Shown: one piece after another, positions 8,656-29,892 of the stretch
How positions within the stretch are numbered: position 1 is the first letter of the stretch
Layout: every line of letters begins with the position of its first letter
Source of the DNA: a bacterium
GTDB lineage: Bacteria; Arandabacterota; Arandabacteria; Arandabacterales; JALGWA01
NCBI GenBank assembly: GCA_050125095.1
Contig: JASFEA010000019.1
Coordinates: forward strand, 1 to 29,929
Direction of reading: 5' to 3'
Length of the DNA: 29,929 nt
The notes under the pieces: model-generated
Seen by the model: the letters and a program-made list of their open reading frames with translations, nothing else
Told to the model about the DNA's origin: nothing
Databases searched by the model: none
Position numbers and translations under genes: made by a program

Positions 8656-8700
8656 TGCTGAATCCCCCTCTTGCCGCTCTATATATGATGAAGGCGCCCG

Positions 8701-8809: not shown

Positions 8810-9484
8810 CTAGCCCTCAGCGGGATTCTGCTCCTGGTCGAAATGATGCTTTATAACGGTGCCTTCGACCATGAAAATGGTGTCTTCGCAGATATTGGTG
8901 GAAAGGTCCGCAATGCGCTCGAGATTCCCCGAGATCCGTATGAGGTGAAGCGAGCGCTCTATCGTCTTGGGGTCGGCGGCCATGAATGTCACGAGCTCCC
9001 TCATCACCTGCATGGCAAGGGCGTCGACTTCGTTGTCGCGCTCGCAGACGCTCCTCGCCAACCGCACGTCCTCCTCTACAAAGGCGACTATGCTGTCCTT
9101 GAGCATCCCTATCGTCACCTTCGCCATACGCGGAATATCGATATAGGGTTTTACCAGCGGCCTCTCAATAAGGTAGGTGGCGCTCTGCGCTATATTGACG
9201 GCGTGGTCTCCCATTCTCTCAAGGTCATTATTCATTTTCATCATCATGAGTATAGTGCGGAGGGCCTTGGCGCGCGGTTGGAACTGCGCGATAACCTCCG
9301 TGCAGAGCTCGTCGATCTCGATCTCGATCTGGTTGGCCCGGTGCTCGTCCTTCTCGATTACCTCAATCAGGAGATCGTGGTCTTTCCTCATAAGCCCGTT
9401 CACCGCTTTTTCTATCATGCTCTCGGCCAGCCCTGCGTATTCGACGAGCTCCCGCTTGAGATTTGTCATTCTATCATCCAGCAT
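8810..9484 (-). CDS. phoU: Phosphate signalling complex protein PhoU
   Basis: Two PhoU repeats (DLERMGDHAVNIA; NLERIADLSTNICE); follows pstB. Confidence 0.96.
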   Translation of the reverse strand: MLDDRMTNLKRELVEYAGLAESMIEKAVNGLMRKDHDLLIEVIEKDEHRANQIEIEIDELCTEVIAQFQPRAKALRTILMMMKMNNDLERMGDHAVNIAQSATYLIERPLVKPYIDIPRMAKVTIGMLKDSIVAFVEEDVRLARSVCERDNEVDALAMQVMRELVTFMAADPKTIERSLHLIRISGNLERIADLSTNICEDTIFMVEGTVIKHHFDQEQNPAEG

Positions 9485-9493
9485 TCAACTCTC

Positions 9494-10252
9494 CTAGCCG
9501 AACTTGCCTGTCAGGTATTCCTCGGTGCGTTTATCCTCAGGCACGGTGAAGAGCTTCTCGGTCGGCCCGAACTCGATGAGCTCTCCCAGATAAACGAATG
9601 CCGTGAGGTCCGAAACCCTAGCAGCCTGAGCCATGTTATGCGTAACGAGCATTATAGTCACGTCCTTTTTGAGCTCGAATATCAGCTCTTCAATGCGCGA
9701 CGTGGCCTTGGGGTCCAGCGCCGATGTCGGTTCGTCGAGCAGCAGGATCTCGGGCTCCATCGCCAGCGCGCGCGCTATACAGAGCCTCTGCTGCTGGCCC
9801 CCCGACAGGAATGTGCCCTTACGGTGAACCGAATCCTTGACCTCATCCCAGAGTGCCGCCTTCACCAGCGACTCCTCGACTATCCTGTCCTGGCGGCTCT
9901 TCTTGAGCTTTATGCCGTTGAGTTTGTAGCCCGCGATGACGTTGTCGTAGAGGCTCATGGTCGGAAACGGGTTGGGTTTCTGAAAAACCATGCCGATCTT
10001 ACGGCGCACGATGATGGGATTCATTCTCTGCACGTCATCTTCATTAAGCAGTATCCGTCCCGTCGTACTCGCCCCCGGGACCAGCTCGTGCATCCGGTTG
10101 ACGCAGCGTATCAGCGTGGTCTTGCCGCAACCCGAAGGCCCCATGATAGCAGTGGCCTTGTTCTTCGGAATCGACAGATTGACTTCGCGCAGTATCTGCT
10201 GGTCTCCGAAGAAAGCGCAGAGTTTCTCTGTTCTTAGAACTGTATCTTCCAT
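9494..10252 (-). CDS. pstB: Phosphate ABC transporter ATPase
   Basis: [49 protein letters not shown]. Confidence 0.97.
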
Positions 10253-11085
10253 CTTCTCGCCACCGTTTTAGCTACCAAGTTCATCAGCAGCACAAAAACG
10301 ACTAACACAAACGAGGCCCCCCACGCAAGCGTATGCCAGTCGGGATACGGGCTCGTTGCGTAGTTGAAAATCAACAGGGGCAGTGAGTTCATAGGTTTAA
10401 GCACGTTATATTCCGTGAAGGGGCTCCCGAAAGCCGTAAAGAGAAGGGGCGCCGTCTCGCCGGATATCCTCGCCACGCTGAGGAGAATGGCTGTGAGAAT
10501 TCCGCTTAAGCCCGCGGGCAGTATGACCTTGAGGACGGTCCTGTAGTAGGGGACGCCCAGCGCCAGCGAGGCCTCTCTGAGAGTCGCGGGGATGAGCTTC
10601 AGCGTCTCCTCAGTTGACCTTACTACGACGGGGAGCATCATTATGCCCAGGGCCGCGCCTCCCGAGAGCGCGGAGAATCCGCGCATCGGCACTACGATCC
10701 AGAGGTAGGCGATTATGCCTATTACAATCGATGGTATCCCCTGCAGCACTTCAACCACAAGCCTGACCAGATATGCGAGTCTGGATTTCCCGTGCTCCGA
10801 GAGGAAAATGCCTGCCGCGATGCCGACGGGCACTGCCATGGCGCATGCCAGCAGTATAAGCATGCCGGTGCCGACAAGCGCGTTTGAGATTCCGCCGCCG
10901 AGCTCCCCGACGGGCGCCGGGAGGCTGGTGAAGAATCCCCAGTTGATGGCCGAGATCCCCTTCCGTCCGATGTAATAGAGTATGAGAAACAGGGGAACCA
11001 GCGACACGAAGGACAGCAGGATCACGACTCCCGTGAAGAACCTGTCCTGCAGTATTCTCGCGTAAACACCCCTATCTTCCTTCAT
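10234..11085 (-). CDS. pstA: Phosphate ABC transporter permease PstA
   Basis: [20 protein letters not shown] loop, [13 protein letters not shown]; overlaps pstB by 19 nt. Confidence 0.95.
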
Positions 11086-12110
11086 GCCGGCTCCACGCTC
11101 GTGCGTTTGATTATCTGCCTGCCGACAACGCTTATTATCGTACTCACCAGGAAGAGCAGCAGGCCGATCTCTACAAGCGCCGACAAGTACACGGCCTCCG
11201 TCGCTTCCGCGAATTCATTTGCTATAACGCTCGCCATGGTGTTCGCTGGGGCGAACAGGCTCCTGGGAAGGAAATTCGAGTTCCCGATTACCATGGTAAC
11301 CGCCATGGTCTCGCCCAGGGCGCGCCCCAGCGCAAGCAGAACGCCGGCAAGTATGCCGGACCGCGCGTACGGGAGCACCACTCTCCTTATCACCTCATAG
11401 CGAGTCGCTCCGAGGGACAGGGCCGCCTCCTTCTGGTCGGCGGGGACGAGCTGTATGACCTCCCGTCCCAACGACGCCGAGTAGGGGATGATCATGATCG
11501 CCAGCACGACCGAAGCGGTGAAAATGCCCACGCCATAGGGCGGTATTCCAAGCTTCATCTGCAGCGCCCTTACCACGGGAACGAGCACGAACAGTCCCCA
11601 GAAGCCGTATATCACCGAGGGAATTCCCGCCAGCAGGTCTACGGAGCTCTTTAGGAAGGACGATAGCGGGCCTTCCCTGAAATACTCCCCAAGGTAGATG
11701 GAAATCGCCAGGGAGAAGGGAATGGATATCGCGAGGGCCAGGAATGACGTGAGCAGCGTCCCCAATATGAAGGGGAGCGCGCCCAGCTCTCCCGTAACCG
11801 GATTCCATGTGGTCCCGTAAAGGAAGCCGACGCCGAGCTCTTTGATGGCCGGCATCGAATGGACAACCAGGGTCAATAAAACAGCCACCAGGAGCCCAAG
11901 AACGGTCCACGCCGCCACTTTCAGAACGCGTCCAAAGGTGACTTCCGAAGACGCCAGCTTCTTATGGCCCCGGGCGGTACGCGGTATGAGCAGCCGCATG
12001 GGATTGAACGGAGAGACAAAAGGCGTCCTCTTTGAGAGCTCCTCCATTCTCTCGGGCGGGATCCCTCTGCGTGCAGCCGGGCTCTCCCGCGGGTCCGGCG
12101 AGCTCCTCAT
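11082..12110 (-). CDS. pstC: Phosphate ABC transporter permease PstC
   Basis: LAGIPSVIYGFWG, KEAALSLGAT, GRALGETMAVTMVIGN, IANEFAEA. Start uncertain (12110 chosen). Confidence 0.93.
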   Translation of the reverse strand: MRSSPDPRESPAARRGIPPERMEELSKRTPFVSPFNPMRLLIPRTARGHKKLASSEVTFGRVLKVAAWTVLGLLVAVLLTLVVHSMPAIKELGVGFLYGTTWNPVTGELGALPFILGTLLTSFLALAISIPFSLAISIYLGEYFREGPLSSFLKSSVDLLAGIPSVIYGFWGLFVLVPVVRALQMKLGIPPYGVGIFTASVVLAIMIIPYSASLGREVIQLVPADQKEAALSLGATRYEVIRRVVLPYARSGILAGVLLALGRALGETMAVTMVIGNSNFLPRSLFAPANTMASVIANEFAEATEAVYLSALVEIGLLLFLVSTIISVVGRQIIKRTSVEPA

Positions 12111-12242
12111 CTCCCCTGCCTTTTGCTGCTTGTCTCTCAGGGATTCGCCTGGTAGCATACAAGCACCTTCTATGTGTAATCGAACAAGGCCACTGAGGCC
12201 GGCCGCCGTTCGGCATCCGGGGCAGAAAGACTTAACTCAGGC

Positions 12243-12276
12243 CCAGGCAGGGGAGGGCTCAGTCTCCCCCGCCTGG
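12243..12276 (-). terminator. Strong intercistronic stem-loop between pstS and pstC
   Basis: Minus strand CCAGGCGGGGGAG-ACTGAGCC-CTCCCCTGCCTGG, a 13-bp stem with one G-U pair; no adjacent U tract. Confidence 0.6.
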
Positions 12277-12310
12277 TGTTGCCCCGGCTTGCCTATGCAG
12301 AACGGGGCCT

Positions 12311-13354
12311 TTACCTTGCTATTGGCTTGCCTCCATACATTGTCGACTTTATGACCGCTTCGGCCTTCCTGACGGCCTCAACCGGCAGAGGCGCGTAATG
12401 CAGCGGCTCGGCCAGTTCCTGGCCTTCATGCGTCATCCACCAGACCAGGTCCATCAAACTCCGTGCCTTATCCATGCTTCTGCCGTCATATTCCTGTTCT
12501 CTATAGAATATCAGCCAGGTGAACCCGCTTATTGGGTAGCCTTCCTCGGCTCCGGTGTCAGTGATCGACACCCTGGTGTGGCCCGGAAGCTCTATGTCCG
12601 CAGCCAGGCTCACGGAATGGATCGACGGTTTGATGAAATTCCCGGACCTGTTCTTGATGTTCGCCACCGGCATATTGTTCGACACTGCGTAGATGAGCTC
12701 CACATAACCGATGGACCCGGGCAGCTGCTTTACCAGCCCGGCCACGCCGGGATTCCCTTTTGCCCCGAGCCCTGAGGGCCAGTTAAGCGATTTGCCCGTG
12801 CCCACGCCTTTCTTCCATTCCGGGCTCACCTTGCTGAGGTAGTCGCTGAAGATAAAAGTCGTCCCGCTGCCGTCCGAGCGGTGAACCACCACGATAGTCA
12901 TGTCGGGAAGCTCGACGCCCGGATTGGCCTTGCTGATGCGATCATCATTCCAGTTGGTCAGCTTACCCAGGAATATATCGGCAACCACATCGGGCGTGAG
13001 GTTGAGCGTCGGGTTGTCAGGCACGTTATAAGTCACCACCACTGCGCCCAGGCACGTGGGAACATGCAGGATCTCATTGTCCAGCTCCTTAAGGTCATCA
13101 TCGCTAATGAAGGCATCCGTGCCTCCGAAGTCCACGGTCTTGCTGAGGACCTGTCTGATCCCTCCGCCTGAACCGATAGCCTGGTAGTTGATCTTTATGC
13201 CCTCTTCCTTGTGATAGACGTCGAACATCTTGGAATAGAGCGGGTAGGGGAAGGTGGCGCCGGCCCCCAGTAATTCCTTGCTCGCGGCGAAACCCGGGCC
13301 GGCGCAACCCAGCGCCAGGACCGCCGCTACAGCAGCTGCCAGTATGTGTCTCAT
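12311..13354 (-). CDS. pstS: Phosphate ABC transporter substrate-binding protein
   Basis: Signal peptide; GAGATFPYP, GSGGGI, DFGGTD, HRSDGSGTT, GYPISGFTW. Confidence 0.97.
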   Translation of the reverse strand: MRHILAAAVAAVLALGCAGPGFAASKELLGAGATFPYPLYSKMFDVYHKEEGIKINYQAIGSGGGIRQVLSKTVDFGGTDAFISDDDLKELDNEILHVPTCLGAVVVTYNVPDNPTLNLTPDVVADIFLGKLTNWNDDRISKANPGVELPDMTIVVVHRSDGSGTTFIFSDYLSKVSPEWKKGVGTGKSLNWPSGLGAKGNPGVAGLVKQLPGSIGYVELIYAVSNNMPVANIKNRSGNFIKPSIHSVSLAADIELPGHTRVSITDTGAEEGYPISGFTWLIFYREQEYDGRSMDKARSLMDLVWWMTHEGQELAEPLHYAPLPVEAVRKAEAVIKSTMYGGKPIAR

Positions 13355-13366
13355 GTCATCCCTCCT

Positions 13367-14470
13367 TCAGAACTTGAATACACAGTCGAGCTGTAGAGTA
13401 TCGAGGGGATCTTCATCGCCCTCCAGCTTTCGAGCCCGATAGTAATCCAGTCCCAATATGACGCTTCTTGCCACTGCATATTCGAAAATGACCTCATGAC
13501 CGCTTACACCCGTGGAACCGCAATAGAAGTCCGAGTCCGGGAACACGTCCATGAATGCGTCTCTTTCGAGCCGCCTGTAGTTGTAGTACGCGGACCACGA
13601 ATTCCCGGTCTTGACTTTAGCGTGCCCGAATCTGAAACCGGCCAGAAAACCCGAGTCCTTCGAATCGAAGCTATATACATAGTCGCCGATAAAGGTGAGT
13701 GTGTACGGCGGCCCGTCCTCCCCGCCGACCCTATACGCGAGAACCAGGTTGGGACTCAGACTGTCGTAGTCGTATTTCAGGCGGCCGTCTACAAGCGTGT
13801 TCGTACCGGAACTGAGGTCCCCATCGGGAACCGATCCCTTCACGTTTTCGAATCCGTAGAAAGCGATTCCGAATTCGCCCGTGAAATCGCCCGCTGCCGA
13901 AAAACTCACGCCCGGCTGAACGTAAAACATATACTGGTCTTCCGAGCTGGACTTCTCTTCCTTAAGAACAAGGAATCCGGCGTTCGCCAGGCCCCCGATT
14001 CCGCCCGCGGGCGGGCGCTTCCAGAGAGCGGAAGCCCCTTCGAAGTTGATGTCCCCGTCCCAGATCAGGTCGTCCACCACCAGAAAGGCATTTCGGTACT
14101 TGCCGAGAACCAGGCCGACCTCCTCCGTCGCCTGCCAGGCGGCATATGCCATATCCAGCCTGATATCCTTGGTTACAAAAAAATCGCCGAGGGTCTGGTT
14201 GGTAGACCTGTTGTCGGTCTGGCCGCTGGCCATTCTGATCCCGACGCTCACCCTGTCATTCAGCGCCGTCTCGAAGCCGAACCGCAGCCTACCGCGAGCC
14301 CGGTGCCGCTGTGTTGACGTCTGCACCTCTGACAAATGGTCATACTGATAACGCAATCTCAGATCGCCTTTGAATTCAGTGTCCTCGAACGAGAATGCGA
14401 AGCAAGTCTCCCCCAGGATCGTCAAAGCCAAAACCGGAATGATATATCTAAAATTCGACCCCCGAGCCAT
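13367..14470 (-). CDS. Putative outer-membrane porin
   Basis: ATG 14470 with AAGGAGG RBS; signal peptide; FKGDLRLRY, RARGRLRFG, RSTNQTLG, LIWDGDINFEG; amphipathic strands; terminal Phe (LQLDCVFKF). Confidence 0.85.
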   Translation of the reverse strand: MARGSNFRYIIPVLALTILGETCFAFSFEDTEFKGDLRLRYQYDHLSEVQTSTQRHRARGRLRFGFETALNDRVSVGIRMASGQTDNRSTNQTLGDFFVTKDIRLDMAYAAWQATEEVGLVLGKYRNAFLVVDDLIWDGDINFEGASALWKRPPAGGIGGLANAGFLVLKEEKSSSEDQYMFYVQPGVSFSAAGDFTGEFGIAFYGFENVKGSVPDGDLSSGTNTLVDGRLKYDYDSLSPNLVLAYRVGGEDGPPYTLTFIGDYVYSFDSKDSGFLAGFRFGHAKVKTGNSWSAYYNYRRLERDAFMDVFPDSDFYCGSTGVSGHEVIFEYAVARSVILGLDYYRARKLEGDEDPLDTLQLDCVFKF

Positions 14471-14508
14471 AGGCAAGCCTCCTTGTTCTGCTGTGCGTTC
14501 GTATGACG

Positions 14509-14850
14509 CTACCGGTTCCCGGCAGCACCTATCAAGCGCACGGGCCGCATGCCGTTTTCCGGCGAATCTGAGCCGGCGACCCCGTGTTCCTCGATCACCT
14601 CCCGGGCATTTGCCCTGTACCAGGCGCATGCCCTGTGCAAATGACTCCGGCAGTAGTTCTGTTCTTCGAAGGCCGACGGAACCGCCACCCGGCCCATGTA
14701 GGCCCTGCAGTAATTCCGCGATCTTCCCTTCCTTAAGTTAGGACAGCCGAAGCCGCCCTGGCAGATACCTTTAGCTTCCGAATTGACAGCACGAGGGGAT
14801 GATGAGTTCCCCACCAGTTGCCGTGTGCGCTCTTCCGTGAAACCAATCAT
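14509..14850 (-). CDS. Small Cys-rich hypothetical protein, probable first gene of the pst operon
   Basis: CPNL-x7-YCRAY-x6-PSAFEEQNYC-x4-H-x2-CAWY pattern; lies between the Pho-box promoter and the porin on the same strand; AAGGAAG upstream. Confidence 0.6.
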   Translation of the reverse strand: MIGFTEERTRQLVGNSSSPRAVNSEAKGICQGGFGCPNLRKGRSRNYCRAYMGRVAVPSAFEEQNYCRSHLHRACAWYRANAREVIEEHGVAGSDSPENGMRPVRLIGAAGNR

Positions 14851-14961
14851 CCTGGGTAAGCTTCCTTTGCGTTCAGTCCACGTTTCGCCACTTCACGAAC
14901 ACTAGAGAGAACTCATGATCCCCTGGCACCTGTTCGAACGCCAGCCAGGATATCCGACATA

Positions 14962-15015
14962 ATTGTAGTGGGGCAGGGTTAAGACCGTATAAAGGAAGTG
15001 TTAATTTTGGGTTAA
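14962..15015 (-). promoter_or_regulatory. Pho-box promoter of the porin-pstSCAB-phoU operon
   Basis: Minus-strand repeats TTAAC(15015), TTAAC(15004), TTTAT(14993), TTAAC(14982) at 11-bp period, then 10 nt, then TACAAT (14967-14962). Confidence 0.85.
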
Positions 15016-15028
15016 GATGCCTGGCCCG

Positions 15029-16759
15029 TTATGAGGCAGCCGGGAGGATTATCTTGAAGGCGGTTCCGCCGGCGGGCACTGCGGTGACGGATATCTCTCC
15101 GCCGTGCATAAGCACGATGTGCTTGACTATGGAAAGCCCCAGGCCCGTGCCGCCGACTTTCCTTGAGCGGGACTTGTCGACAACATAGAAACGCTCGAAT
15201 ATCCGGGTCCTGTGCTCCTCCGGTATCCCGATCCCCGTATCGCTTACCGTTGCGGTCACGGCGCCGCCTTCGACGTCTATTAGAATGGTTATTCCCCCCG
15301 CCTCCGTATACTTGATCGCGTTGTCGATGAGATTGACGAAGACCTGCTGGAGCTTGTAGGAATCGCCCATTACCCGCGGGACGTCTTCCGCGGCACTAAT
15401 CCTTATGCTGAGATGCTTGTCCCTGAGACGGCGTTCGAATATGGTGGCGACATTCCTGACGACCCCCTCGAGATCGACCTCTTCCGGCTCAATCTCGCTT
15501 CCGCGATCCTCAAGCTCGGACAGGTTCAGCAGGTCTTCGACTATGTCGGCAAGACGGTCTGTATGCCGCTTCACTATGTCCAGGTAGTGCCCGGCTTCGC
15601 CGGCAACTTCGTCGCTGGCGGCCTCGAGGAAGCCCTTTATGGCTGTCAAGGGGGTACGAAGTTCGTGAGAGAGGTTCACCACGAAGTCCTTCTTCACTCT
15701 CTCGACACCTCTTATCTCCGTAATGTCGTGGAACCACACCACTACCTCGTCCTGGGCCTCCACATATGAGGCTCCGCATGAGTAGATCTTCCCCTCGTGG
15801 CGGATCTCGCCGACCACGCTTTTTTTCTCCGCGCTTGCGGTCTTGACGAGGTCGCCGAAATCAGCCGCCCGCAGCACTTCCCAGTAGAACTTGCCGTCAA
15901 CCTCTTCTTCCCCCGATATGCTGCGGAATGCGTCATTACTCAGGATCACCCTCCCGTCAGCATCGAGAACAGCCAGGCCGTCCCTTATGGACGAGATTAT
16001 GCCGGCCAGCTCCTCTTGCCTGCGCGATAGTTCGCCGAAAAGCTGCTGTATCTGCCCGGTCATGACATTGAAACTGTCTCCAAGCTCGCGCAGTTCATCC
16101 CGGCCGCTCAGTATCACCCTGGTATCGAGGTCGCCGCCGGCCACGCTTCGCGACGCCTCTATAAGGTCTCTGACCGGCCGTGACAGGGTTGCGGAGAATA
16201 CAAAAGCGCCGACGAGCGAAATGACGAGGGAGATTATCGCAATGGTGATGATCCGCTTCTCAAGGACCCAGAGGACCCGGTCTATTTCCGTCAGGAATCT
16301 GCTGATCCTCAGCACTCCTGTGATTTCACCGCCGATCGCGAGCGGCACCGCAACATAGTGCATGTCCGCGCCCGTCGTTCCACTGAACCGCGTCGCGCTG
16401 CCGACTTCACCCCTGAGCGCGCGCCTGATCTCGGGCCGGGCGGCGTGGTTTTCCATCTGCAGAGGGTCTTCCATCGAGTCCGCCAGCACGACGCCGGATG
16501 CGTCGATCACGGTTATCCTGGTTCCAGTCTCATCGCCGATGCGAGATACAACTCCATTCAGCTCGGCGAGATCACCGTCTTCCACCAGGGTAAGGATCTG
16601 GAGGCTGAACACCTTTCCGAGGTCGTAGAGATGGGCCGTCAGGGTCTCCACATAGTGGTCGCTCATCGTGTCTATTGAGTAGATGAGAACTGTGCTGAGT
16701 AGGACTATGGCCAGCACCGCGTACCAGAAGAAGGCCTTGAAGAAAATGGTGATTTTCAT
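15029..16759 (-). CDS. phoR: Phosphate regulon sensor histidine kinase (2 TM, extracytoplasmic sensor, HAMP, PAS, HisKA, HATPase)
   Basis: MENHAARPEI sensor domain, NLSHELRTPLT, NLIDNAIKYT, DTGIGIP, RIFERFYVVDKSRSR, GGTGLGLSIV; adjacent to pst genes. Confidence 0.93.
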   Translation of the reverse strand: MKITIFFKAFFWYAVLAIVLLSTVLIYSIDTMSDHYVETLTAHLYDLGKVFSLQILTLVEDGDLAELNGVVSRIGDETGTRITVIDASGVVLADSMEDPLQMENHAARPEIRRALRGEVGSATRFSGTTGADMHYVAVPLAIGGEITGVLRISRFLTEIDRVLWVLEKRIITIAIISLVISLVGAFVFSATLSRPVRDLIEASRSVAGGDLDTRVILSGRDELRELGDSFNVMTGQIQQLFGELSRRQEELAGIISSIRDGLAVLDADGRVILSNDAFRSISGEEEVDGKFYWEVLRAADFGDLVKTASAEKKSVVGEIRHEGKIYSCGASYVEAQDEVVVWFHDITEIRGVERVKKDFVVNLSHELRTPLTAIKGFLEAASDEVAGEAGHYLDIVKRHTDRLADIVEDLLNLSELEDRGSEIEPEEVDLEGVVRNVATIFERRLRDKHLSIRISAAEDVPRVMGDSYKLQQVFVNLIDNAIKYTEAGGITILIDVEGGAVTATVSDTGIGIPEEHRTRIFERFYVVDKSRSRKVGGTGLGLSIVKHIVLMHGGEISVTAVPAGGTAFKIILPAAS

Positions 16760-17436: not shown

Positions 17437-17494
17437 TTCTGCCCGTCCTCTCTGCTCGAGCGGGGCGGGGAGCATCCGGTCCCCACCGGCACTC

Positions 17495-17522
17495 ATTATA
17501 TTTGATCAAGCGGGATTTACAA
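17495..17522 (-). promoter_or_regulatory. Sigma70-type promoter of phoBR
   Basis: Minus strand TTGTAA (17522-17517), 16 nt, TATAAT (17500-17495). Confidence 0.5.
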
Positions 17523-17660
17523 GTGGCAGGTTACAATGAACGCGCCCCAAAGGAAGCCGGGCGGAAGCGCCCGATGGGCCACCTTCTTCCCCCGACGACG
17601 GCCCGGAACCCCGTTAACGGCGACCATGGCGCCCGGTACTCCAGAGCCGGTCGGGGCCGG

Positions 17661-17789
17661 CTATCTACGGACCGTGGCGCGCAATATGAGTATCCCACCG
17701 TCGATCAGCGCCGTACCCAGCAACAGGGCCGCCCTGCTGAACGCCAAAGCTACCCTCTGACGTACGAGCGCCAGAGCTACTGAGGACAT
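17661..17789 (-). CDS. 42-aa small hydrophobic protein (below the ORF-track cut-off)
   Basis: Hand-translated MSSVALALVRQRVALAFSRAALLLGTALIDGGILILRATVRR*; GGAGGT RBS 6 nt upstream; starts 14 nt after the TPR gene stop. Confidence 0.55.
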   Translation of the reverse strand: MSSVALALVRQRVALAFSRAALLLGTALIDGGILILRATVRR

Positions 17790-17803
17790 ACCCCTACCTC
17801 CGG

Positions 17804-19012: not shown

Positions 19013-19040
19013 ACCTTCTTTCTCCATAAGGCATGCCGCC

Positions 19041-19652: not shown

Positions 19653-19654
19653 CA

Positions 19655-22145: not shown

Positions 22146-22897
22146 TGGCTGATCCTCCCCAGGGGCAGCGATAAGAGCTCGACCGGCCTTATCCTTGCCG
22201 CCATGTCCATGGCCTCCGAAATCGATCGCGAGTACTTCCCCGGGAGCTCCGACCACTCTGCGGCGGCCCGGTCATACTCCCCTACCGTCGCCCCGTCCGG
22301 GGTCCTCCAGAAGGCTGACACTCTTCCAATCCTCAGCACATCCACGAAGAGCGTGTCTCCTCCCACGGGGACACGTTCCTGATCGACCTCGACGGCGGCT
22401 CCATAACCCGCCTCGATCTGCAGGGCCTCCAGGACCGCCTTGAGCTTGTCGGCCCCCGACAGGTCGGGCTTGGCCAGCTCCTTTTTCACATAGGCGACCC
22501 GCCCCTCCCTTTCATCCAACAGAAACGGGATATCTCTCTGAACCCAGTCCTCCAGCCTGAAGGCAATAGCGTTCAAGGTGTCGACCAGGCTATCTTCCAG
22601 GCGTTCCGACTCCTCCAGACGCCTCACGAGCTCGGCGATTCCCTCCTCCAGGGCAGCCACCCTTTTCTCGTCAACCGATTTGCGGTCGCGGAGGTATTCC
22701 ACATTGGCTTTGGCGCTGCGGTAGCGCATCTCGAGTTCGGATCTTTCGGCGGCCCAGTCGTCCTGCTTTCTCTGAGTCTCCTGGTGGATCTGCACCGTCC
22801 CGTCCACCTCGTCACGGAGATCCTCAGACGCCGACCTGGCCACAAGCGGCAGGGCGGCCACCACCACAAGCAACAAAAGGGATACATTTCTGAGCAT
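22142..22897 (-). CDS. DUF3450-family protein (TtpB-like)
   Basis: Signal peptide, coiled coil, DIPFLLDER, LEALQIEAGYG, VLRIGRV; first gene of the ttpC-exbB-exbD-tonB-TPR operon. Confidence 0.85.
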   Translation of the reverse strand: MLRNVSLLLLVVVAALPLVARSASEDLRDEVDGTVQIHQETQRKQDDWAAERSELEMRYRSAKANVEYLRDRKSVDEKRVAALEEGIAELVRRLEESERLEDSLVDTLNAIAFRLEDWVQRDIPFLLDEREGRVAYVKKELAKPDLSGADKLKAVLEALQIEAGYGAAVEVDQERVPVGGDTLFVDVLRIGRVSAFWRTPDGATVGEYDRAAAEWSELPGKYSRSISEAMDMAARIRPVELLSLPLGRISQ

Positions 22898-23064
22898 TAA
22901 GACTTCCTCTCATCTATGAGGCCGGCTTGCCACACCGCCTCGGGCGACTCCCTCGCGTCGCCGCGGACACCGGCACATCGAGAGTCCGGGCGACAGCCAT
23001 CTGGTTGGTTGTTTCCCTCGTTTAAAGACATGGATTGATAGACGCGTTCATAGTGAACGCGAGA

Positions 23065-23118
23065 ATTGTACCCGGGGGGAGTTAAGTTATTATGAACGTT
23101 ATGTTAAGAAATCGTGAA
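23065..23118 (-). promoter_or_regulatory. Pho-box promoter of the TonB energizer operon
   Basis: Minus-strand TTCAC(23118), TTAAC(23107), TTCAT(23096), TTAAC(23085) at 11-bp period, then 10 nt, then TACAAT (23070-23065). Confidence 0.82.
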
Positions 23119-23166
23119 TTCGTATCCGCGTTCATGCCGGCGACCCGGGAGCCGAGCCGGTACCCC

Positions 23167-23231
23167 GTCACAGTGAATTAACACCTTCTTAACCGTCGCT
23201 TCATACTCCCCTAACACACCTTCGTTACAAT
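23167..23231 (+). promoter_or_regulatory. Pho-box promoter of the TonB-dependent receptor operon
   Basis: GTCAC(23167), TTAAC(23178), TTAAC(23189), TTCAT(23200), CTAAC(23211) at 11-bp period, then 10 nt, then TACAAT (23226-23231). Confidence 0.82.
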
Positions 23232-23357
23232 TTCCGCGAGCTCTAAGTTGGGGATATGCAAATACGATGACAGACAGAGTGATTCCCGAAAGAGAAGGAG
23301 CTCTTAAAAGAATGGAGTCGATTCATAGGTTCCTGGAGGAGGGACAGGAGATTCACT

Positions 23358-26072
23358 ATGAAAACTCTCACGCTGACTTTGCTGTTTCTGTTGGCCGCGT
23401 TTATCGCGACATGTGCCTCGGGGGAAACCGGAACGCTGTACGGTTCGGTCCACGATCTCAAGTCCGGCGAGAGGATCTCCGGGGCGAATGTACTCGTGGT
23501 CGGGACGACAAATGGAACATCAACAAATCTCGACGGCGATTTTGAGATCAAAGGCATCTCACCGGGGACCTACGACATCAGGGTGACGTCGATGGGTTTT
23601 AACACGAAGGTGATCTCACAGACGGAAATAACTTCCGGAAACCCGGTCAGGGTCGATGCGGGACTCACGCCCATAAGCCTTGATGACGCATACACGATCG
23701 AGGAGATGGTCGTCTCGGCCGAACGCATCCTCTCGACAGGCTACGCGGTGCTCGCCCAGCGGAAGCAGGCGGCGACGATAGGTGACGCCATCAGCGCAGA
23801 GCAGATCTCAAGGTCGCCGGACGGGACTTCGGGGGACGCGCTCAAGCGGGTCACGGGACTCTCGGTGGTCGACAACAAGTACGTCTTTGTCAGGGGAGTG
23901 ACGGACAGATACAATGCGACCGCCATTAACGGTGTGGCGGTAAGCAGTACGGATACCGACGCCGACAAGAAGAGCTTTTCCTACGATCTTATCCCGGCCA
24001 GTCTCCTTGCCAACACGGTCGTCGTAAAGACGGCCACGCCAGACCAGCCCGGGGATTTCACAGGCGGACTGGTCCAGGTGAATACCATGGAGTTTCCCCC
24101 GAATCTCGTTCTCAACTTCGGTTTGTCGCCGTCCATATACGCCAGCACTACCAATACCACGGTGCGGGCGTCACAGGGGGGCGGCAAGGATTGGACGGGC
24201 AGGGACGACGGTTCAAGGGCGCTGCCGGAGGGACTGACAGGCGACGAGCTCGCGAAGGCACTGCCGAACACGTGGATGACCCGCGATAAGCGGGCACCCT
24301 ATAATCGCTCATTTAATCTCTCGGTAGGCAACCGGGCCCTCGCGGGTCTCCACGAATTCGGGTTCATCGGCGCGCTTTCGTATAAGAGCAAGGATGTATC
24401 GTCTGTCTGGAAGAGGAAATCATCGCTCCCGTTCATCGATGTCGGCGGGGAGAGTTTCAGATACAACGTGCTCTGGGGCGCCATACTCAATTTCAACTAC
24501 CGGCCGTCATACGCACATAAATTCAGCTTCCAGAACAACTATACACAGGCTGCCGAAGACAAGGTCCACTTAGCCGAGGGGCTCGGCGAGAACGGCTACA
24601 TTCGCAGGCAGACTATCGAGTGGGACGAGCGGTCGCTCTTCGTGACCCAGCTCAATGGCGAGCACAATGTGGACCTCGCCGACGCCGAGTTGGAGTGGCA
24701 GGCATACTATTCGACGTCCAATGCCAAGGAGCCGGACCGGAAGAACATCGAGTACCAGGAAGGGGCCTCAGGCGAATTCGCAATGATCGAAAACTACCGC
24801 AGCTGGAGCGCCCTCGATGAGCGCGGCTACGGAGCGGAATTCAATCTTACCATCCCCATAGAACGGTCAAGGTTCAAGTTTGGCTATCACCACAAGTACA
24901 GGAAGCGCGAATTCGATATCGCAGTCTACCATTCCGACCAGAGCAAGCTGCACTGGAGCAACTGGCACCTGGTGCTGCTGCCGCTCGATGAGATATTCCT
25001 GCCCGATAACTACGGCGCAGGCAAATTTAGATTCCTTCCCATGACCCAGTACACAGGGGCGTACGACGGAAGGCATCGGATCAACGCGTTCTACGGAATG
25101 GCAGACGTTCCGTTTACTCTTCTCGGCCAGAGATTCCGCGCGGCCGGCGGGTTGCGGATAGAGGACTCCAACCAGATCGTCGACGGCGAGACAGCCGATC
25201 CGTTGAAACCATTCACGACCGCAACGGTGAACAAGACCGACATGCTGCCGTCCGCCAACCTGACGTATGCCGTGAACGACATAACCAATTTTCGGCTGGC
25301 CTTCTCCCATTCGGTGAACCGGCCGGAGTTCAGGGAGATGGCCGACGTCAAGTACTACGACTTCAATGAATTCCAGAACGTTAACGGCAATCCCAAACTT
25401 AAGAGGGCGTTCATCCGAAACTACGATATGAGACTCGAGGTATTCCCCGGGCCGGCCGAGGTGCTCGCAATCAGCTACTTCTACAAGGACCTCGAGGACG
25501 CGATAGAAATCCGGCTCATCCCCGAGCCCACCCGGTTTGTGCGTACCTGGTTTAACTCGCCCAACGGCAAGAACCACGGCTACGAGATCGAGGTTCGCAA
25601 GAGTCTCGGCTTCCTGACGGGATTTCTCAACGACATCATGATCACAATGAACTACACCCGCGTAACATCTGAAATCGAGTACGTCGACAAGAAGACGGCA
25701 CCGGACGGCAGCCACATCATCCGCACGCTGACGAGGCCGATGCAGGGGCAGTCGCCGTGGATGATGAACGCCGGCGTCATGGTCACGGCCCCTTATACGG
25801 GAACCACTTTCAACATCCTCTACAACAAGATAGGAAGGCGCCTGGTATCCGTCGGTGACTCCAGATACGAAGACGTCTACGAGGAGCCGCGCAACGTGGT
25901 CGACATCGCGATTACTCATAGGATCAGCGCTTGGCTGGGCGCCAAGTTCACGGTGCAGGACCTCACTGCGGACGACCTGGTACATACCATGGGGCCCGCG
26001 GATTTCAGTGGGCCCCATTCGAAGATAAGCAGGAGCTCGACTTACGGGCTTTCGCTGTCTTTCAAGTTATAG
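23358..26072 (+). CDS. TonB-dependent receptor with N-terminal carboxypeptidase-regulatory-like domain
   Basis: Signal peptide; GTLYGSVHD...GTSTNLDGDFEI; plug ALKRVTGLSV, FVRGVTDRYN; barrel motifs LPSANL, VNRPEFREMA, GNPKLK, RPMQGQSP. Confidence 0.93.
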   Translation: MKTLTLTLLFLLAAFIATCASGETGTLYGSVHDLKSGERISGANVLVVGTTNGTSTNLDGDFEIKGISPGTYDIRVTSMGFNTKVISQTEITSGNPVRVDAGLTPISLDDAYTIEEMVVSAERILSTGYAVLAQRKQAATIGDAISAEQISRSPDGTSGDALKRVTGLSVVDNKYVFVRGVTDRYNATAINGVAVSSTDTDADKKSFSYDLIPASLLANTVVVKTATPDQPGDFTGGLVQVNTMEFPPNLVLNFGLSPSIYASTTNTTVRASQGGGKDWTGRDDGSRALPEGLTGDELAKALPNTWMTRDKRAPYNRSFNLSVGNRALAGLHEFGFIGALSYKSKDVSSVWKRKSSLPFIDVGGESFRYNVLWGAILNFNYRPSYAHKFSFQNNYTQAAEDKVHLAEGLGENGYIRRQTIEWDERSLFVTQLNGEHNVDLADAELEWQAYYSTSNAKEPDRKNIEYQEGASGEFAMIENYRSWSALDERGYGAEFNLTIPIERSRFKFGYHHKYRKREFDIAVYHSDQSKLHWSNWHLVLLPLDEIFLPDNYGAGKFRFLPMTQYTGAYDGRHRINAFYGMADVPFTLLGQRFRAAGGLRIEDSNQIVDGETADPLKPFTTATVNKTDMLPSANLTYAVNDITNFRLAFSHSVNRPEFREMADVKYYDFNEFQNVNGNPKLKRAFIRNYDMRLEVFPGPAEVLAISYFYKDLEDAIEIRLIPEPTRFVRTWFNSPNGKNHGYEIEVRKSLGFLTGFLNDIMITMNYTRVTSEIEYVDKKTAPDGSHIIRTLTRPMQGQSPWMMNAGVMVTAPYTGTTFNILYNKIGRRLVSVGDSRYEDVYEEPRNVVDIAITHRISAWLGAKFTVQDLTADDLVHTMGPADFSGPHSKISRSSTYGLSLSFKL

Positions 26073-26180
26073 GAGGTGGGGCGCAGCTTGCCGGTAACGT
26101 TATCGAAGGGAGGTGATGCTTTAAGGCAAGAAGATGCTCATGGGGCTATTTTCAGTGAAGGAATTCCAGGAGGAAAACTA

Positions 26181-26768
26181 ATGATCAAGAGACTGTTTAT
26201 CGCATGCATAGGCGCTGCCGTGCTGCTGTCGGCAGGAATGGCGGCGGCAGGTGTGCCCTGTGCCGGCACTTCGGAGTGCAACGTATCTGTGGCGCATTTT
26301 GACCCCACAGTCGTTTGCGGCGGTACCGAGGGTTATTTCTGTCCCCTGGGCGACCAGGACACGGTGCATGTCGCTGTAGTGATCAGGGACTGCTACGGCA
26401 ACACGCTTGCCGGCAGGGACGTCACGATTGACCCGCCCGCTTCTGGTTTCTTCTTCTGCGAGGCGTCCAAGCAGGTCACGACGGATGCTCTGGGAGAGGC
26501 GTCTACATTCTTCACTCAGTTCGGCGGCTGCGGCTTCCTGCAGATGACCGCGACGAGTGAAGGCGTGTCGATCCTGGGCAACCTGGTTTACGCAGCCAAC
26601 GTCGACTGTCTGGCCCCGGCCAGCGGCGACGTGACTCTGGGTGACTTCGCCCAGTTCGCTGCGTACTACAACTCGACCGAGGCCTGCGTCGATTACGACT
26701 GCAGCGGTCTGGTCGCGCTGGGTGACTTCGCCAGGTTCGCGGCGCACTACGATCACAGTTGTCCGTAG
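26181..26768 (+). CDS. Secreted Cys-rich Ig-like protein with C-terminal dockerin-like double EF-hand
   Basis: ATG 26181 with AGGAGG RBS; signal peptide; 11 Cys in the mature part; VVIRDCYGN Ig-like strand; paired SGDVTLGDFAQFAAYY / SGLVALGDFARFAAHY. Confidence 0.75.
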   Translation: MIKRLFIACIGAAVLLSAGMAAAGVPCAGTSECNVSVAHFDPTVVCGGTEGYFCPLGDQDTVHVAVVIRDCYGNTLAGRDVTIDPPASGFFFCEASKQVTTDALGEASTFFTQFGGCGFLQMTATSEGVSILGNLVYAANVDCLAPASGDVTLGDFAQFAAYYNSTEACVDYDCSGLVALGDFARFAAHYDHSCP

Positions 26769-26805
26769 GCGAAGCACAACAGCATATATCCGAGGAGGAG
26801 ACAAA

Positions 26806-29800
26806 ATGAAGAGAGGCATACTGCTACTGCTGGTGGCGACGGTCGCCTTGAGTGCCGCGGCCTACGCCAAGCCTACGGCAGTGCTCGGCCCGGGTCTGGG
26901 TACCGGTAGGACTCCCTACCATCAGAACTATGACCGGGTGCTCTCCGCTGACACGACTTACTTTCTGACGGGTCTTTACTACGTGGACTCCACGTACGCA
27001 ATCACGATTCCCGCGGGCACGGTTGTCAAGGGCGACACGGCGGCTACCCTGATCATAAAGAGGGGAGCCCAGATATTCGCCAACGGCGAGGCCGGAGACC
27101 CGATTGTCTTCACGAGCATGAAGCCCGCCGGCCAGCGCGCCCGTGGCGACTGGGGCGGCGTGGTCATCCTCGGTGAGGCCCCGGTCAACCAGGTCAACCC
27201 TGTCATCGAGGGCGGCATCATCGAGGGCACCTATGGCGGAAACGTCTCTGACGACAACAGCGGTGTTTTCAAGTACGTCAGGATCGATTTCCCCGGCTAC
27301 AGGTTCCAGCTGAACAATGAAATCAACGGCCTAACCATGGGAGGCGTCGGCAGCGGCACCGAGCTTCACCACGTGCAGGTGAGCTACTCGTTCGACGACT
27401 CCTACGAGTGGTTCGGCGGCACCGTAAACGCCAAGTACCTGGTGGCGTTCGGCGGCACCGACGACGAGTTCGACACCGACTTCGGTTACTCGGGCAAGGT
27501 CCAGTGGTGCTTCGGCATGAGGGACATGACCGTATGGGATCCCAACGGCGAGTCCAACGGCTTCGAGTCGGATAACGAAGGCTCTTCGCCTTACACCTCG
27601 AAGCCCCTCACAAAGCCCGTGTTCTCAAACGTGACACTGGTGGGTCCCGAGCGTACCGACGCGTGGGTGGGGAACCTTCCGCCCGGCCACAGGTTCCAGT
27701 TCGGCTCGGTTCTCCGTCGCAATACGCAGACCTCGATCTACAACTCCTGCATCATGGGCTACCCCTGGGGCATGAGCCTGCGTGACGACTCGACCAAGGC
27801 TTCCTGCGCCGCCGACATACTGCAGCTCAAGCAGACCAACTACCAGGCGAGCAGCATTCCCTCCGGCTCGAGCCATATCCACCAGGAGACCAGGTGGCCC
27901 GTGACCGACCCGATTCCGCCGGGAGTGCTCGCGTGGATCAACACGGTCGGCTACGGCAACCAGGATTCGAACGGCGCGGCCGGCAGCCCGAGTATGCCGA
28001 GCTACATCATGCTCACCGACCTGAACGACTTCAACAATCCGGACCCCCGGCCGATGGCGGGCTCGCCCCTCTTGACCAACGGCACCAACTACTCTTATCC
28101 GAAGCTTCAGGACGCGTTCTTCGATTCAGTGGACTACCGCGGCGCGTTCGATCCCAACCTTCCGATGGATCAGCAGTGGACGGCGGATTTCGCGTGCTTC
28201 GACCCTCAGGGCTGGGACGAGACACCTCCACAGGAATGCGGCGTGGTCCTGGGCCCGGGTCTCGGCTCGGGTAGGACGCCTTACCATCAGAACTTCGACA
28301 GGGCGCTCTCGCCGGATACGCTCTACTATCTGACGGGTCTGTACTATGTCGACTCGACTTACTCGATCACGATTCCCGCCGGCACGGTGGTTCGCGGCGA
28401 CACGGCAGCCACTCTCGTCATAAAGAGGGGCGCCAAGATCTACGCGACCGGCACCCCGACCAAGCCCGTGGTCTTCACGAGTCTCAAGGATGAAGGCCAG
28501 CGCGCCCGCGGCGACTGGGGCGGCGTGGTCATACTCGGCGAGGCTCCGGTCAACCAGGTTAACCCGGTTATCGAGGGCGGCATCATCGAGGGTTCCTACG
28601 GCGGAAACGTGGCCAACGACAACAGCGGAATCTTCAAGTACTGCCGGATCGAATTCCCCGGTTACAGGTTCCAGCTAAACAATGAGATCAACGGTCTCAC
28701 CATGGGAGGCGTCGGCAGCGAAACCGAGCTTCATCACGTTCAGGTGAGTTACGCGTTCGACGACTCCTACGAGTGGTTCGGCGGGACCGTCAACGCCAAG
28801 TACCTGGTCGCGTTCGGCGGCACCGACGACGAGTTCGACACGGATTTCGGCTACTCGGGCAAGGTCCAGTACGCGTTCGGCCTTAAGGACCCTACGAACT
28901 GGGATCCCAACGGCGAGTCCAACGGCTTCGAGTCGGACAACGAGGGCTCTTCGCCTTACACCTCGAAGCCCCTGACCAAGCCCGTGTTCTCTAACGTGAC
29001 ACTGGTGGGCCCCGAGCGCGTCGACACTCTGGTCAACAACCTTCCGCCCGGCCACAGGTTCCAGTTCGGCTCGGTTCTCCGTCGCAACACGCAGACCTCA
29101 ATCTACAACTCCTGTATCATGGGTTATCCCTGGGGCATGAGCCTGCGTGACGACTCGACCAAGGCTTCAGCCGCTGCCGACATTCTGCAGCTTAAGCAGA
29201 CCAACTACCAGGCGAGCGGGATCCCCTCCGGATCGACACATATCCACCAGGAGACCAGGTGGCCCGCGACCGACCCGATTCCGCCGGGAGTGCTCGCGTG
29301 GATCAACACGGTCGGCTACGGCAACCAGGATTCGAACGGCGCGGCCGGCAGCCCGAGCATGCCGAGCTACATCATGCTCACAAACATGCATGACCTCAAC
29401 AATCCGGACCCCAGGCCGATGGCCGGTTCTCCGCTCTTGACCAACGGTACCTTCTACGGCTATCCGAAGCTGCAGGATGCGTTCTTCGACAGCGTATCGT
29501 ACCGGGGCGCGTTCGACCCGAACCTGCCTATGGACAAGCAGTGGACAGCCAACTGGACCAACTTCAATCCGAATGGTGAAGTCTACTACGCCGGCGTCGA
29601 CGTGGACACCGAAGGCCCGGCTCCGGCCACCACCAGGTTCCTGGCCCAGAACTATCCCAACCCGTTCAGTCCCTCGACAACCATCCGGTTCAGCATTCCC
29701 ACGACCGGACATGTCTCCCTCAAGGTCTACAACGTGAATGGTCAGGAAGTCTCGACCCTCGTTGATGAGGTGATGGCGCCGGGAACGTTCCAGACGACAT

Positions 29801-29892
29801 TCCGCACCGATGGCGTCGCCCCGGGCACTTACTTCTACTGCCTCAAGGGTAACGGGTTCAACGAGACGCGTAAGATGGTCGTCCTCAAGTAA
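26806..29892 (+). CDS. 1028-aa exported protein: two tandem beta-helix-like domains plus T9SS type-A/FlgD-Ig C-terminal sorting domain
   Basis: ATG 26806 with GAGGAGG RBS; signal peptide; two copies of GDWGGVVILG, DNSG.FKY.RI.FPG, NEINGLTMGGVGS, DDSYEWFGGTV; C-terminus LAQNYPNPFSPSTTIRF...GTYFY...RKMVVLK. Confidence 0.88.
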   Translation: MKRGILLLLVATVALSAAAYAKPTAVLGPGLGTGRTPYHQNYDRVLSADTTYFLTGLYYVDSTYAITIPAGTVVKGDTAATLIIKRGAQIFANGEAGDPIVFTSMKPAGQRARGDWGGVVILGEAPVNQVNPVIEGGIIEGTYGGNVSDDNSGVFKYVRIDFPGYRFQLNNEINGLTMGGVGSGTELHHVQVSYSFDDSYEWFGGTVNAKYLVAFGGTDDEFDTDFGYSGKVQWCFGMRDMTVWDPNGESNGFESDNEGSSPYTSKPLTKPVFSNVTLVGPERTDAWVGNLPPGHRFQFGSVLRRNTQTSIYNSCIMGYPWGMSLRDDSTKASCAADILQLKQTNYQASSIPSGSSHIHQETRWPVTDPIPPGVLAWINTVGYGNQDSNGAAGSPSMPSYIMLTDLNDFNNPDPRPMAGSPLLTNGTNYSYPKLQDAFFDSVDYRGAFDPNLPMDQQWTADFACFDPQGWDETPPQECGVVLGPGLGSGRTPYHQNFDRALSPDTLYYLTGLYYVDSTYSITIPAGTVVRGDTAATLVIKRGAKIYATGTPTKPVVFTSLKDEGQRARGDWGGVVILGEAPVNQVNPVIEGGIIEGSYGGNVANDNSGIFKYCRIEFPGYRFQLNNEINGLTMGGVGSETELHHVQVSYAFDDSYEWFGGTVNAKYLVAFGGTDDEFDTDFGYSGKVQYAFGLKDPTNWDPNGESNGFESDNEGSSPYTSKPLTKPVFSNVTLVGPERVDTLVNNLPPGHRFQFGSVLRRNTQTSIYNSCIMGYPWGMSLRDDSTKASAAADILQLKQTNYQASGIPSGSTHIHQETRWPATDPIPPGVLAWINTVGYGNQDSNGAAGSPSMPSYIMLTNMHDLNNPDPRPMAGSPLLTNGTFYGYPKLQDAFFDSVSYRGAFDPNLPMDKQWTANWTNFNPNGEVYYAGVDVDTEGPAPATTRFLAQNYPNPFSPSTTIRFSIPTTGHVSLKVYNVNGQEVSTLVDEVMAPGTFQTTFRTDGVAPGTYFYCLKGNGFNETRKMVVLK
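26881..29571 (+). repeat. Intragenic direct duplication, period 1365 bp (copy 1 26881-28206, copy 2 28246-29571)
   Basis: Constant 1365-nt offset checked at 26881/28246, 27541/28906, 28036/29401 and 28198/29563. Confidence 0.97.

Follow-up and report, generated by a model that had tools for sequence, protein, structure and literature searches.

The DNA analyzed here (the window) is the whole 29,929-base contig JASFEA010000019.1 (contig C19) of a 3.35-Mb assembly of 268 contigs that is 91% complete; the source genome, from an uncultured sediment or wetland bacterium of the order Arandabacterales, is labelled G000, and relatives in the same order are labelled G001 etc. The subject of this study is a block of phosphate (pho) and TonB-associated genes in this window (Table 1), in which a porin-pstSCAB-phoU operon, the phoBR pair and a six-gene TonB motor are adjoined by a divergent operon encoding a TonB-dependent receptor, a small secreted protein and a surface protein with two tandem beta-helix copies. 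Gene calls were based on Pfam and NCBIfam profile searches of the window's open reading frames (ORFs), and every gene named in an earlier reading of this DNA, made from its letters alone (here the sequence-only reading), was recovered where that reading had placed it. The same reading had noted the lack of a recognizable PhoA, PhoX or PhoD phosphatase and of a SusD-like partner in the block, and none of the ORFs in the block indeed gave a Pfam match to these families. In the rest of the genome, PhoX gave no match, PhoD was matched only below its cut-off, and a PhoA-like gene is located at C5:38602-39666, without an upstream array of the type described below (best two-unit score 6.8).

Table 1. 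Features of the phosphate and TonB gene block, with the evidence or composition noted for each.
Feature	Position	Strand	Evidence or composition
phoU	8810-9484	-	PF01895, E 2.9e-42
pstB	9494-10252	-	Pfam/NCBIfam
pstA	10234-11085	-	Pfam/NCBIfam
pstC	11082-12158	-	Pfam/NCBIfam
pstS	12311-13354	-	TIGR00975, 364.5 bits (cut-off 205)
Porin_5-family porin	13367-~14470	-	PF16930, E 1.5e-46
Small Cys-rich leader ORF, between array 1 and porin	14509-14850	-	start codon uncertain
PHO-box-type array 1 with TACAATT, porin-pst promoter	14960-15015	-	TTAAC, TTAAC, TTTAT, TTAAC; 11-bp period
phoR	15029-16759	-	sCache/HAMP/PAS/HisKA/HATPase_c
phoB	16756-17496	-	Response_reg, Trans_reg_C
Terminator-like hairpin, then sigma-70-like promoter, ahead of phoB	17495-17574	-	hairpin 17574-17557; TTGTAA-16-TATAAT 17522-17495
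ttpD-like TPR protein	17804-19051	-	Pfam
tonB (TonB_C)	19041-19715	-	Pfam
exbD	19655-20074	-	Pfam
exbB (MotA_ExbB)	20074-20727	-	Pfam
ttpC-like 520-aa protein	20694-22256	-	Pfam; DUF3450-like N-terminus, MotA_ExbB
ttpB-like DUF3450 protein	22142-22897	-	Pfam
PHO-box-type array 2 with TACAATT, motor promoter	23063-23118	-	TTCAC, TTAAC, TTCAT, TTAAC
PHO-box-type array 3 with TACAATT, receptor promoter	23178-23233	+	TTAAC, TTAAC, TTCAT, CTAAC
TonB-dependent receptor, 904 aa	23358-26072	+	CarboxypepD_reg, Plug, barrel: PF13715, PF13620, PF07715, PF00593, PF14905
195-aa secreted Cys-rich protein	26181-26768	+	invasin/intimin-type Ig domain, two C-terminal EF-hand/dockerin-like repeats
Surface beta-helix protein, 1028 aa	26806-29892	+	signal peptide, two tandem copies, Por_Secre_tail
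Beta-helix copy 1	26881-28245	+	tandem repeat
Beta-helix copy 2	28246-29610	+	tandem repeat
Type IX secretion system (T9SS) C-terminal sorting domain	~29653-29883	+	TIGR04183, 39.7 bits (cut-off 23)

The proposal of the sequence-only reading that the three transport operons share one promoter architecture was borne out. The porin-pst, motor and receptor operons are each preceded by an array of four units with an exact 11-bp period, each array is oriented like its operon, and each of the three promoters has the box TACAATT beginning 15 bp past the start of unit 4. When up to one mismatch is allowed, TTAAC-N6-TTAAC occurs three times in the window, as compared to 0.27 expected, and all three occurrences are at these promoters. 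Two matrix scans of the assembly returned no fourth array: in one, seven of the nine positions scoring above 14 coincide with the three arrays, either as such or shifted, and the remaining two are without a TACAATT -10 box; in the other, this holds for all five positions scoring above 18. Autoregulation of phoB via such an array was also considered and rejected, as its upstream region shows a sigma-70-like promoter only. A perfect 8-3-8 palindrome, CGCGTTCA-tag-TGAACGCG, is located at 23043-23061, just downstream of the TACAATT box of the motor operon and roughly at the expected transcription start, with an extra GCGTTCA half-site at 23127-23133; this palindrome may function as a further operator or as a hairpin in the 5' RNA, or may consist of additional PHO-like half-sites.

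The PhoP sites of Bacillus subtilis are TT(A/T/C)ACA repeats, usually four in number, to which the units in the window would be very close. PHO boxes are described as 11-nucleotide direct repeat units with approximately seven conserved positions (PMC4415409), and likewise so in Streptomyces (PMC2275107). The arrays in the window have this layout, i.e., at least two 11-nucleotide direct repeats over the -35 position, with four units in each case. A search of 16 genomes from this order for the array (four units, with up to one mismatch) gave twelve sites in eight genomes, compared to none for a reversed control. Six of these twelve sites are located directly after phoR, ahead of a porin gene or pstS (G000, G001, G004, G007, G010 and G015), four precede a receptor operon (G000, G006, G010 and G014) and one belongs to the motor operon of G000. 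The array of G006 comes straight after phoU and is followed by the receptor gene. The receptor operons of G010 and G014 do not adjoin the pho genes yet have kept the array. The twelfth site (G014:C246, 1927-1964, minus strand) precedes a PAD_porph-like gene (PF04371, E 8.7e-29) of the Porphyromonas-type peptidyl-arginine/agmatine deiminase family, a possible regulon member without an obvious phosphorus link.

Across the Fibrobacterota-Chlorobiota-Bacteroidota (FCB) group, a four-unit array was detected 40-350 bp upstream of the receptor gene, in the same orientation, in 22 of 62 usable loci, as compared to a cross-phylum background of 35 clusters per 2.16 Mb, or 0.005 per window of equal size, for a matrix that was derived from this window, genomes that are related and hence non-independent, and intergenic DNA that is richer in AT than the background. 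The arrays of AT-rich Bacteroidota and Ignavibacteriota consist of four TTAACA units followed by a TAnnTTTG-like box. Since relatives have this array ahead of pst as well as receptor operons, and FCB loci have it ahead of the receptor gene, the shared array is very probably a PHO box, and the arrays would yield a PHO-box consensus usable across the phyla of the FCB group.

The linkage of receptor and beta-helix genes was assessed in a scan of one genome per species, which returned at least 594 relatives of the beta-helix protein; the locus counts that follow refer to the best 80 of these. As in the window, the receptor gene adjoins the beta-helix gene in 72 of the 80 loci, and in six of the other eight the upstream gene is not visible because the beta-helix gene starts within ~220 bases of the contig start. 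Genes of the pst system are present within 10 kb in six loci and an adjacent PhoB/PhoR-like pair in five (together 11), with a PhoB-like regulator alone near the receptor/beta-helix pair in three further loci. In six of the 80, including loci of Latescibacterota, Krumholzibacteriota and Eisenbacteria, the pair is adjoined by a DUF3450-type motor. The distant genome G035 has the genes for the beta-helix partner, for all six motor components and for the receptor in a single co-directional string. The alignment spans both beta-helix copies in 13 loci, i.e., the double-domain partner is not special to this window. A gene-neighbourhood search had been put forward as a check by the sequence-only reading; in the search made here, the pair is conserved at most loci, and the motor and the pho genes are nearby at a minority. 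In another distant genome (G036:C5, loci L015/L016), the receptor and its 1016-amino acid double beta-helix partner come directly after a ZnuA/ABC/ABC-3 operon for metal uptake and the gene of a PhoB-like regulator (45% identity), with CTAAC repeats at a 10-11 bp period upstream of the receptor.

The receptor scores 214.7 bits against TIGR01782, which is under the cut-off of 310, and 45.4 bits against the SusC/RagA profile TIGR04056 (cut-off 368.25), and is consequently not classed as a SusC/RagA protein. The two copies of its beta-helix partner are identical at 388 of 455 residues (1151 of 1373 DNA positions). The signal peptide of this protein, MKRGILLLLVATVALSAAAYA, has no lipobox Cys, which sets it apart from lipoproteins. 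Among 71 complete relatives, a T9SS-like tail is present in 35 and a lipobox in at least 21 (the lipobox pattern undercounts), and the T9SS tail is, as predicted from these profiles, an alternative display route inside the family. With one copy as query, 7979 relatives were obtained among 8000 scored candidates, most of which are ~560 amino acids long with a T9SS tail. Among the homologues listed, which are 53-72% identical, all have a precomputed assignment to PF28492 (Beta_helix_4), and so do 30 of 30 neighbours of the window protein in the protein Atlas (score 0.97). Flavobacteriales lipoprotein forms also carry PF28492, and proteins P0098 and P0112 are common to both homologue lists; no named Flavobacterium johnsoniae protein was among the best 120 hits of a search that started from a Flavobacteriales member.

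A model of copy 1, built from 40 sequences (predicted local distance difference test score, pLDDT, 93.7; predicted template modelling score, pTM, 0.93), is a right-handed parallel beta-helix of the pectin-lyase-like fold. Its closest fold matches are all right-handed beta-helices and include 5w6p_A (Z 21.2, root-mean-square deviation (rmsd) 3.4, 271 residues aligned), NosD 7o0y_A (Z 21.0) and Pel9A 1ru4_A (Z 19.5). Tailspikes, NosD, alginate epimerases and PL6/PL9 lyases are among the matches in general; identities to them are 5-15%, with no family prominent. Sequence and profile searches of the PDB with the beta-helix protein returned nothing under E 0.2, and a Foldseek search of the PDB with the model returned nothing at E<=0.001. 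The invariant residues include seven acidic ones (D172, D173, E176, D194, D198, E229 and D231), and two more (D195 and D200) are nearly invariant; these residues occupy equivalent places on three successive coils, alongside conserved arginines, and may represent a metal-binding ladder.

The 195-residue protein encoded between receptor and beta-helix protein was described as dockerin-like in the sequence-only reading, which holds at the level of motif, i.e., for the two C-terminal DxDxSGxVxLxDF repeats, each of which sits on a short helix in an EF-hand-pair-like arrangement, and not at the level of family, as Dockerin_1 (PF00404) was not matched even at E<=1. Its immunoglobulin (Ig) domain gave a Big_1 match below the cut-off and, in the predicted model (pLDDT 89.2), superimposes on invasin 1cwv_A (Z 9.4, rmsd 2.0, 94 residues aligned); the fold match list is dominated by this domain, and residues 142-195 were scarcely probed by it. 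The protein has ten invariant cysteines and belongs to a narrow family, with no more than 20 relatives in a large protein database. A complex prediction of beta-helix copy 1 with this protein scored 0.00 against a mark of 0.32, a result that is uninformative either way.

By gene order and domains, the motor in the block is a six-gene energizer of the TonB2/TonB3 type. In Vibrio (PMC6957404), the tonB2 operon is given as ttpB(DUF3450)-ttpC-exbB-exbD-tonB-ttpD(TPR), is Fur-controlled, requires all six of its genes and serves siderophore uptake. The window motor has the same six genes in identical order as Vibrio TonB2/TonB3, with proteins of comparable size (251 vs 255 amino acids for TtpB and 415 vs 425 for TtpD; PMC6957404), and the TonB3 operon of Vibrio also includes its own receptor gene (PMC6957404). 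In contrast to the Vibrio operon with its Fur box (PMC6957404), the window motor is preceded by a PHO-type array and lacks a Fur-like site: the divergent region 22898-23357 contains no Fur-box-like site better than 11/19, compared to 15/19 before the Fur-family gene next to the block, although the Fur box of the host phylum may differ. No literature report tying a TonB2/DUF3450-type motor to phosphate starvation was found, as judged from titles and abstract openings. The ttpC-like and ttpB-like ORFs as called overlap by 115 bases, for which reason the true ttpC-like start is probably located further downstream.

It is proposed, with a probability of approximately 0.7, that the block represents a single phosphate-starvation regulon locus, in which receptor, beta-helix partner, motor and Pst would all be Pho-induced or act together. 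At low phosphate, PhoR would activate PhoB, which is predicted from the promoter sequences to bind the four-unit 11-bp TTAAC-type arrays at the -35 place, 15 bp ahead of TACAATT; both this binding and the ensuing induction are what we infer from the arrays. PhoB would thereby turn on a first operon, with the small Cys-rich ORF, the porin, pstSCAB and phoU, a second that encodes the dedicated six-protein motor (TtpB, TtpC, ExbB, ExbD, TonB and TtpD), and a third with the receptor, the small Ig/dockerin-like protein and the double beta-helix protein. The last of these would leave the cell via the T9SS and stay on its surface, where, by analogy to known receptor partners, it may act as a lid or binder that captures a phosphorus-bearing substrate for the receptor, the invariant acidic ladder, probably metal-bridged, doing the binding. 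The receptor would then import the substrate, powered by the co-induced motor, and Pst would take up the phosphate that is finally released. The receptor operon and its private motor are the only strong PHO-array targets in the genome besides pst, which argues that the module is a core phosphorus-uptake route and not an accessory one.

Several points weigh against this proposal. At the threshold used, and with a window-derived matrix, 40 of the 62 FCB loci are without an array, and phoB itself has no PHO array in its upstream region. Within 10 kb of the receptor/beta-helix pair, 66 of the 80 loci have neither a pst gene nor a PhoB/PhoR-like match (at least 37% identity). DUF3450 scores above its cut-off in just one of the 16 genomes of the order, so that the motor is not obligatory, and a protein query found no motor in the relatives G010, G014, G005 and G006, which bear the trio of the receptor operon. 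According to the sequence-only reading, the uncharacterized proteins may supply the phosphatase step; among the systems to which the pair is compared below, ElpS of Caulobacter is itself reported to be no phosphatase, though it raises extracellular phosphatase activity (PMC2996285), and the function of Pus3/Pus4 is still called hard to predict in a 2026 preprint. In addition, the kinship of the beta-helix protein to ElpS, Fjoh_0546 and BT4056 is one of shared descriptors and not of direct alignment.

A variant of the proposal concerns the role of the beta-helix partner, which might, in a reading that is tentative and rather unlikely, be a metal-dependent binder or depolymerase of a polyanionic phosphorus polymer instead of a passive lid. 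A precedent exists in gp12 of phage phi29, a beta-helix enzyme that degrades teichoic acid, and the fold matches include 3gq7 (Z 16.1), which we take to be an entry of that protein. Teichoic-acid-like polyol phosphates, phosphoglycans, polyphosphate and metal-phosphate or phytate complexes would be candidate polymers, each of them speculative, and the acidic ladder would hold Ca or Fe ions bridging to phosphate groups. If this were true, the block would be a 'phosphorus polymer utilization locus' and a main route of phosphorus acquisition in anoxic sediments.

Returning to the phosphate-starvation locus as proposed, the motor could alternatively be a recently acquired, general-purpose TonB system that serves many receptors and was merely inserted between phoBR and the receptor operon. 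The rarity of DUF3450 in the order and the relatives that run the receptor trio without a motor agree with such an origin, which is nevertheless unlikely, given that the motor operon starts behind a four-unit array of its own that is in register with TACAATT and that a motor of this type recurs beside the pair in several FCB lineages, up to the single string of G035. Another explanation, which appears more unlikely still, is that the receptor operon serves the uptake and degradation of acidic polysaccharides (pectin-, alginate- or chondroitin-like), with the beta-helix protein as a surface lyase, that the arrays serve another regulator of the OmpR family and that the adjacency to the pho genes is incidental. 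The top fold matches (Z 16-21) are indeed to lyases of polysaccharides, to epimerases and to depolymerases of the tailspike type, and an invariant acidic cluster with invariant arginines, as is shown by Ca-dependent lyases, is present in the beta-helix protein. Furthermore, Lidbury et al. modelled the proteins FI/FII of F. johnsoniae on polygalacturonase (PMC8115612). However, the identity to every matched enzyme is low and no single family is prominent, the block showed neither a carbohydrate-active enzyme nor a transporter or kinase for sugars, six genomes have the same array ahead of their pst operons, and the published induction is specific to phosphate and not to nitrogen or iron (PMC8115612). 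That motor and receptor serve iron or siderophore uptake, controlled by the Fur-family gene downstream of phoU (8257-8715), is very improbable: their six-gene architecture equals that of the Fur-regulated, siderophore-serving tonB2 operon of Vibrio (PMC6957404), but the match in the divergent region is poor (a weak test in this phylum), the sole good Fur-box match precedes the Fur-family gene, whose unit looks like one for peroxide defence/iron storage because it is headed by this gene and continues with rubrerythrin, desulfoferrodoxin and ferritin genes, elpS is not iron-induced (PMC2996285), and the related F. johnsoniae (Fjoh) loci are repressed under Fe limitation (PMC8115612).

The contiguity of the block is supported by independent Logan contigs from runs X3 and X4 (studies P3 and P4), which keep its gene order at ~99% identity. 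Contigs of ~13 kb span 8500-21162 (X3) and 8500-21132 (X4), from the Fur-family gene and phoU up to ttpC, and a 5.2-kb contig spans 21139-26312 in both runs, from ttpC into the receptor operon; within the duplicated beta-helix gene, Logan contigs also continue past copy 1 into copy 2. Because independent contigs carry the same order over 8500-21162 and 21139-26312, a contig chimera was rejected for both spans, while at the junction inside ttpC no one Logan contig crosses with 31 letters on each side. The X3 and X4 runs, labelled as seawater and sediment metagenomes and from different studies, differ from the window at the same 136 and 49 positions, i.e., the same strain variant is present in both.

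As regards other features of the first operon, the porin ORF is open up to 14629, its probable start being the Met ahead of the signal peptide (MARGSNF...). The leader from the PHO array to the porin start is ~490 bases long, and much shorter in the same-genus genome G001. The small Cys-rich ORF within it gave no Pfam match, and an Rfam scan of the whole window, this leader included, returned zero matches. The core of the ORF is 39-40% identical over 55-62 amino acids in the relatives G010 and G015 (tblastn; loci L028 and L025), with the conserved pattern CPxLR...C.xY.G...YC...H..C.W. Directly downstream of phoU (6716-8741) are the Fur-family gene (minus strand) and the genes for rubrerythrin, desulfoferrodoxin and ferritin, and the top Fur-box-like match of the whole window (15/19, start 8723) precedes the Fur-family gene; judged from gene content, these genes look like a unit for oxidative stress, of the PerR/Fur type, in an anaerobe, and unrelated to the pho block. 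A 178-amino acid ORF at 1060-1596 (minus strand) gave a weak Cohesin match (E 0.062, 13.9 bits vs a cut-off of 24.1), which is of note in view of the dockerin-like repeats in the 195-residue protein, yet too weak for any conclusion.

The sequence-only reading had presented the block as an undescribed Pho-regulated, TonB-dependent uptake system. Its regulatory and transport part is supported in silico by the arrays and the synteny, while 'undescribed' does not stand, as the receptor/beta-helix pair is of the kind of ElpS-CC0171, Fjoh_0545/0546 of Pus4 and BT4055/BT4056 (PMC2996285, PMC8115612 and bioRxiv 10.1101/2023.03.17.533168). As shown by Le Blastier et al. in 2010, the ElpS protein of Caulobacter crescentus (CC0170) is a surface lipoprotein produced solely under phosphate starvation, not induced by iron depletion, and encoded beside the TonB-dependent receptor CC0171, with which its homologues co-occur across genomes; it is released by a protease that depends on the type II secretion system (T2SS), whose genes are nearby (PMC2996285). 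The window pair resembles it in that a surface protein co-occurs with a neighbouring TonB-dependent receptor, and differs from it, in a comparison by description, in having a T9SS tail, a double domain and no T2SS.

The F. johnsoniae PhoBR operon, PUSIV (Pus4), encodes OprP (Fjoh_0542), PhoR (0543), PhoB (0544), a TonB-dependent transporter (TBDT; 0545), the lipoprotein FII (0546) and a further lipoprotein (0549), and its genes are upregulated by a log2 value of 8-10 under phosphate depletion (8.0 for Fjoh_0545 and 9.9 for Fjoh_0546), an induction specific to phosphate among the conditions of phosphate, nitrogen and iron limitation; FI-FIII are 31-36% identical to ElpS (PMC8115612). With this operon the window shares a porin, phoBR, a TBDT with PF07715/PF13715/PF14905, a pectin-lyase-fold surface protein behind it and a small surface protein. 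The window partner, in contrast, is a tandem protein with a T9SS tail and no lipobox, the middle protein is Ig/dockerin-like whereas that of PUSIV is a CARDB lipoprotein, and the block also includes the six-gene motor and pstSCAB-phoU.

A third system of this kind is represented by BT4056 of Bacteroides thetaiotaomicron, a pectin lyase superfamily protein that is ElpS-related, 40% identical to Fjoh_0546 and proposed as the lid of the non-SusC transporter BT4055, the proximity of the two being conserved in 621 genera (bioRxiv 10.1101/2023.03.17.533168). The window likewise has a pectin-lyase-superfamily surface protein beside a non-SusC receptor, while BT4056 is a single-domain lipoprotein, for which the available part of the preprint describes neither a Pho link nor a motor. 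As BT4055/BT4056 were proposed to be a transporter and its lid, the beta-helix protein is proposed as the functional analogue of the missing SusD-like partner, with surface capture as its presumed task. SusCD/PusCD systems of Bacteroidota similarly combine a TonB-dependent transporter with a surface capture partner, and PusCD pairs are reported as phosphate-induced; the block differs from them in lacking a SusD-family protein and in having a beta-helix where they have an alpha-helical, TPR-like lid.

In the literature covered, no precedent was found for three features of the block, i.e., the putatively Pho-box-driven TonB2-type motor, the predicted use of the T9SS instead of a lipid anchor for display and the small Cys-rich middle protein. 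By its fold, PF28492 on close homologues, receptor domains, neighbourhood and PHO-type promoter, the window pair nevertheless fits the ElpS/Fjoh_0546/BT4056 kind, and with 7979 relatives among 8000 candidates, at least 594 in the genome scan and the 621 genera reported for BT4055/BT4056, receptor and beta-helix protein would be among the most widespread phosphate-starvation outer-membrane modules.

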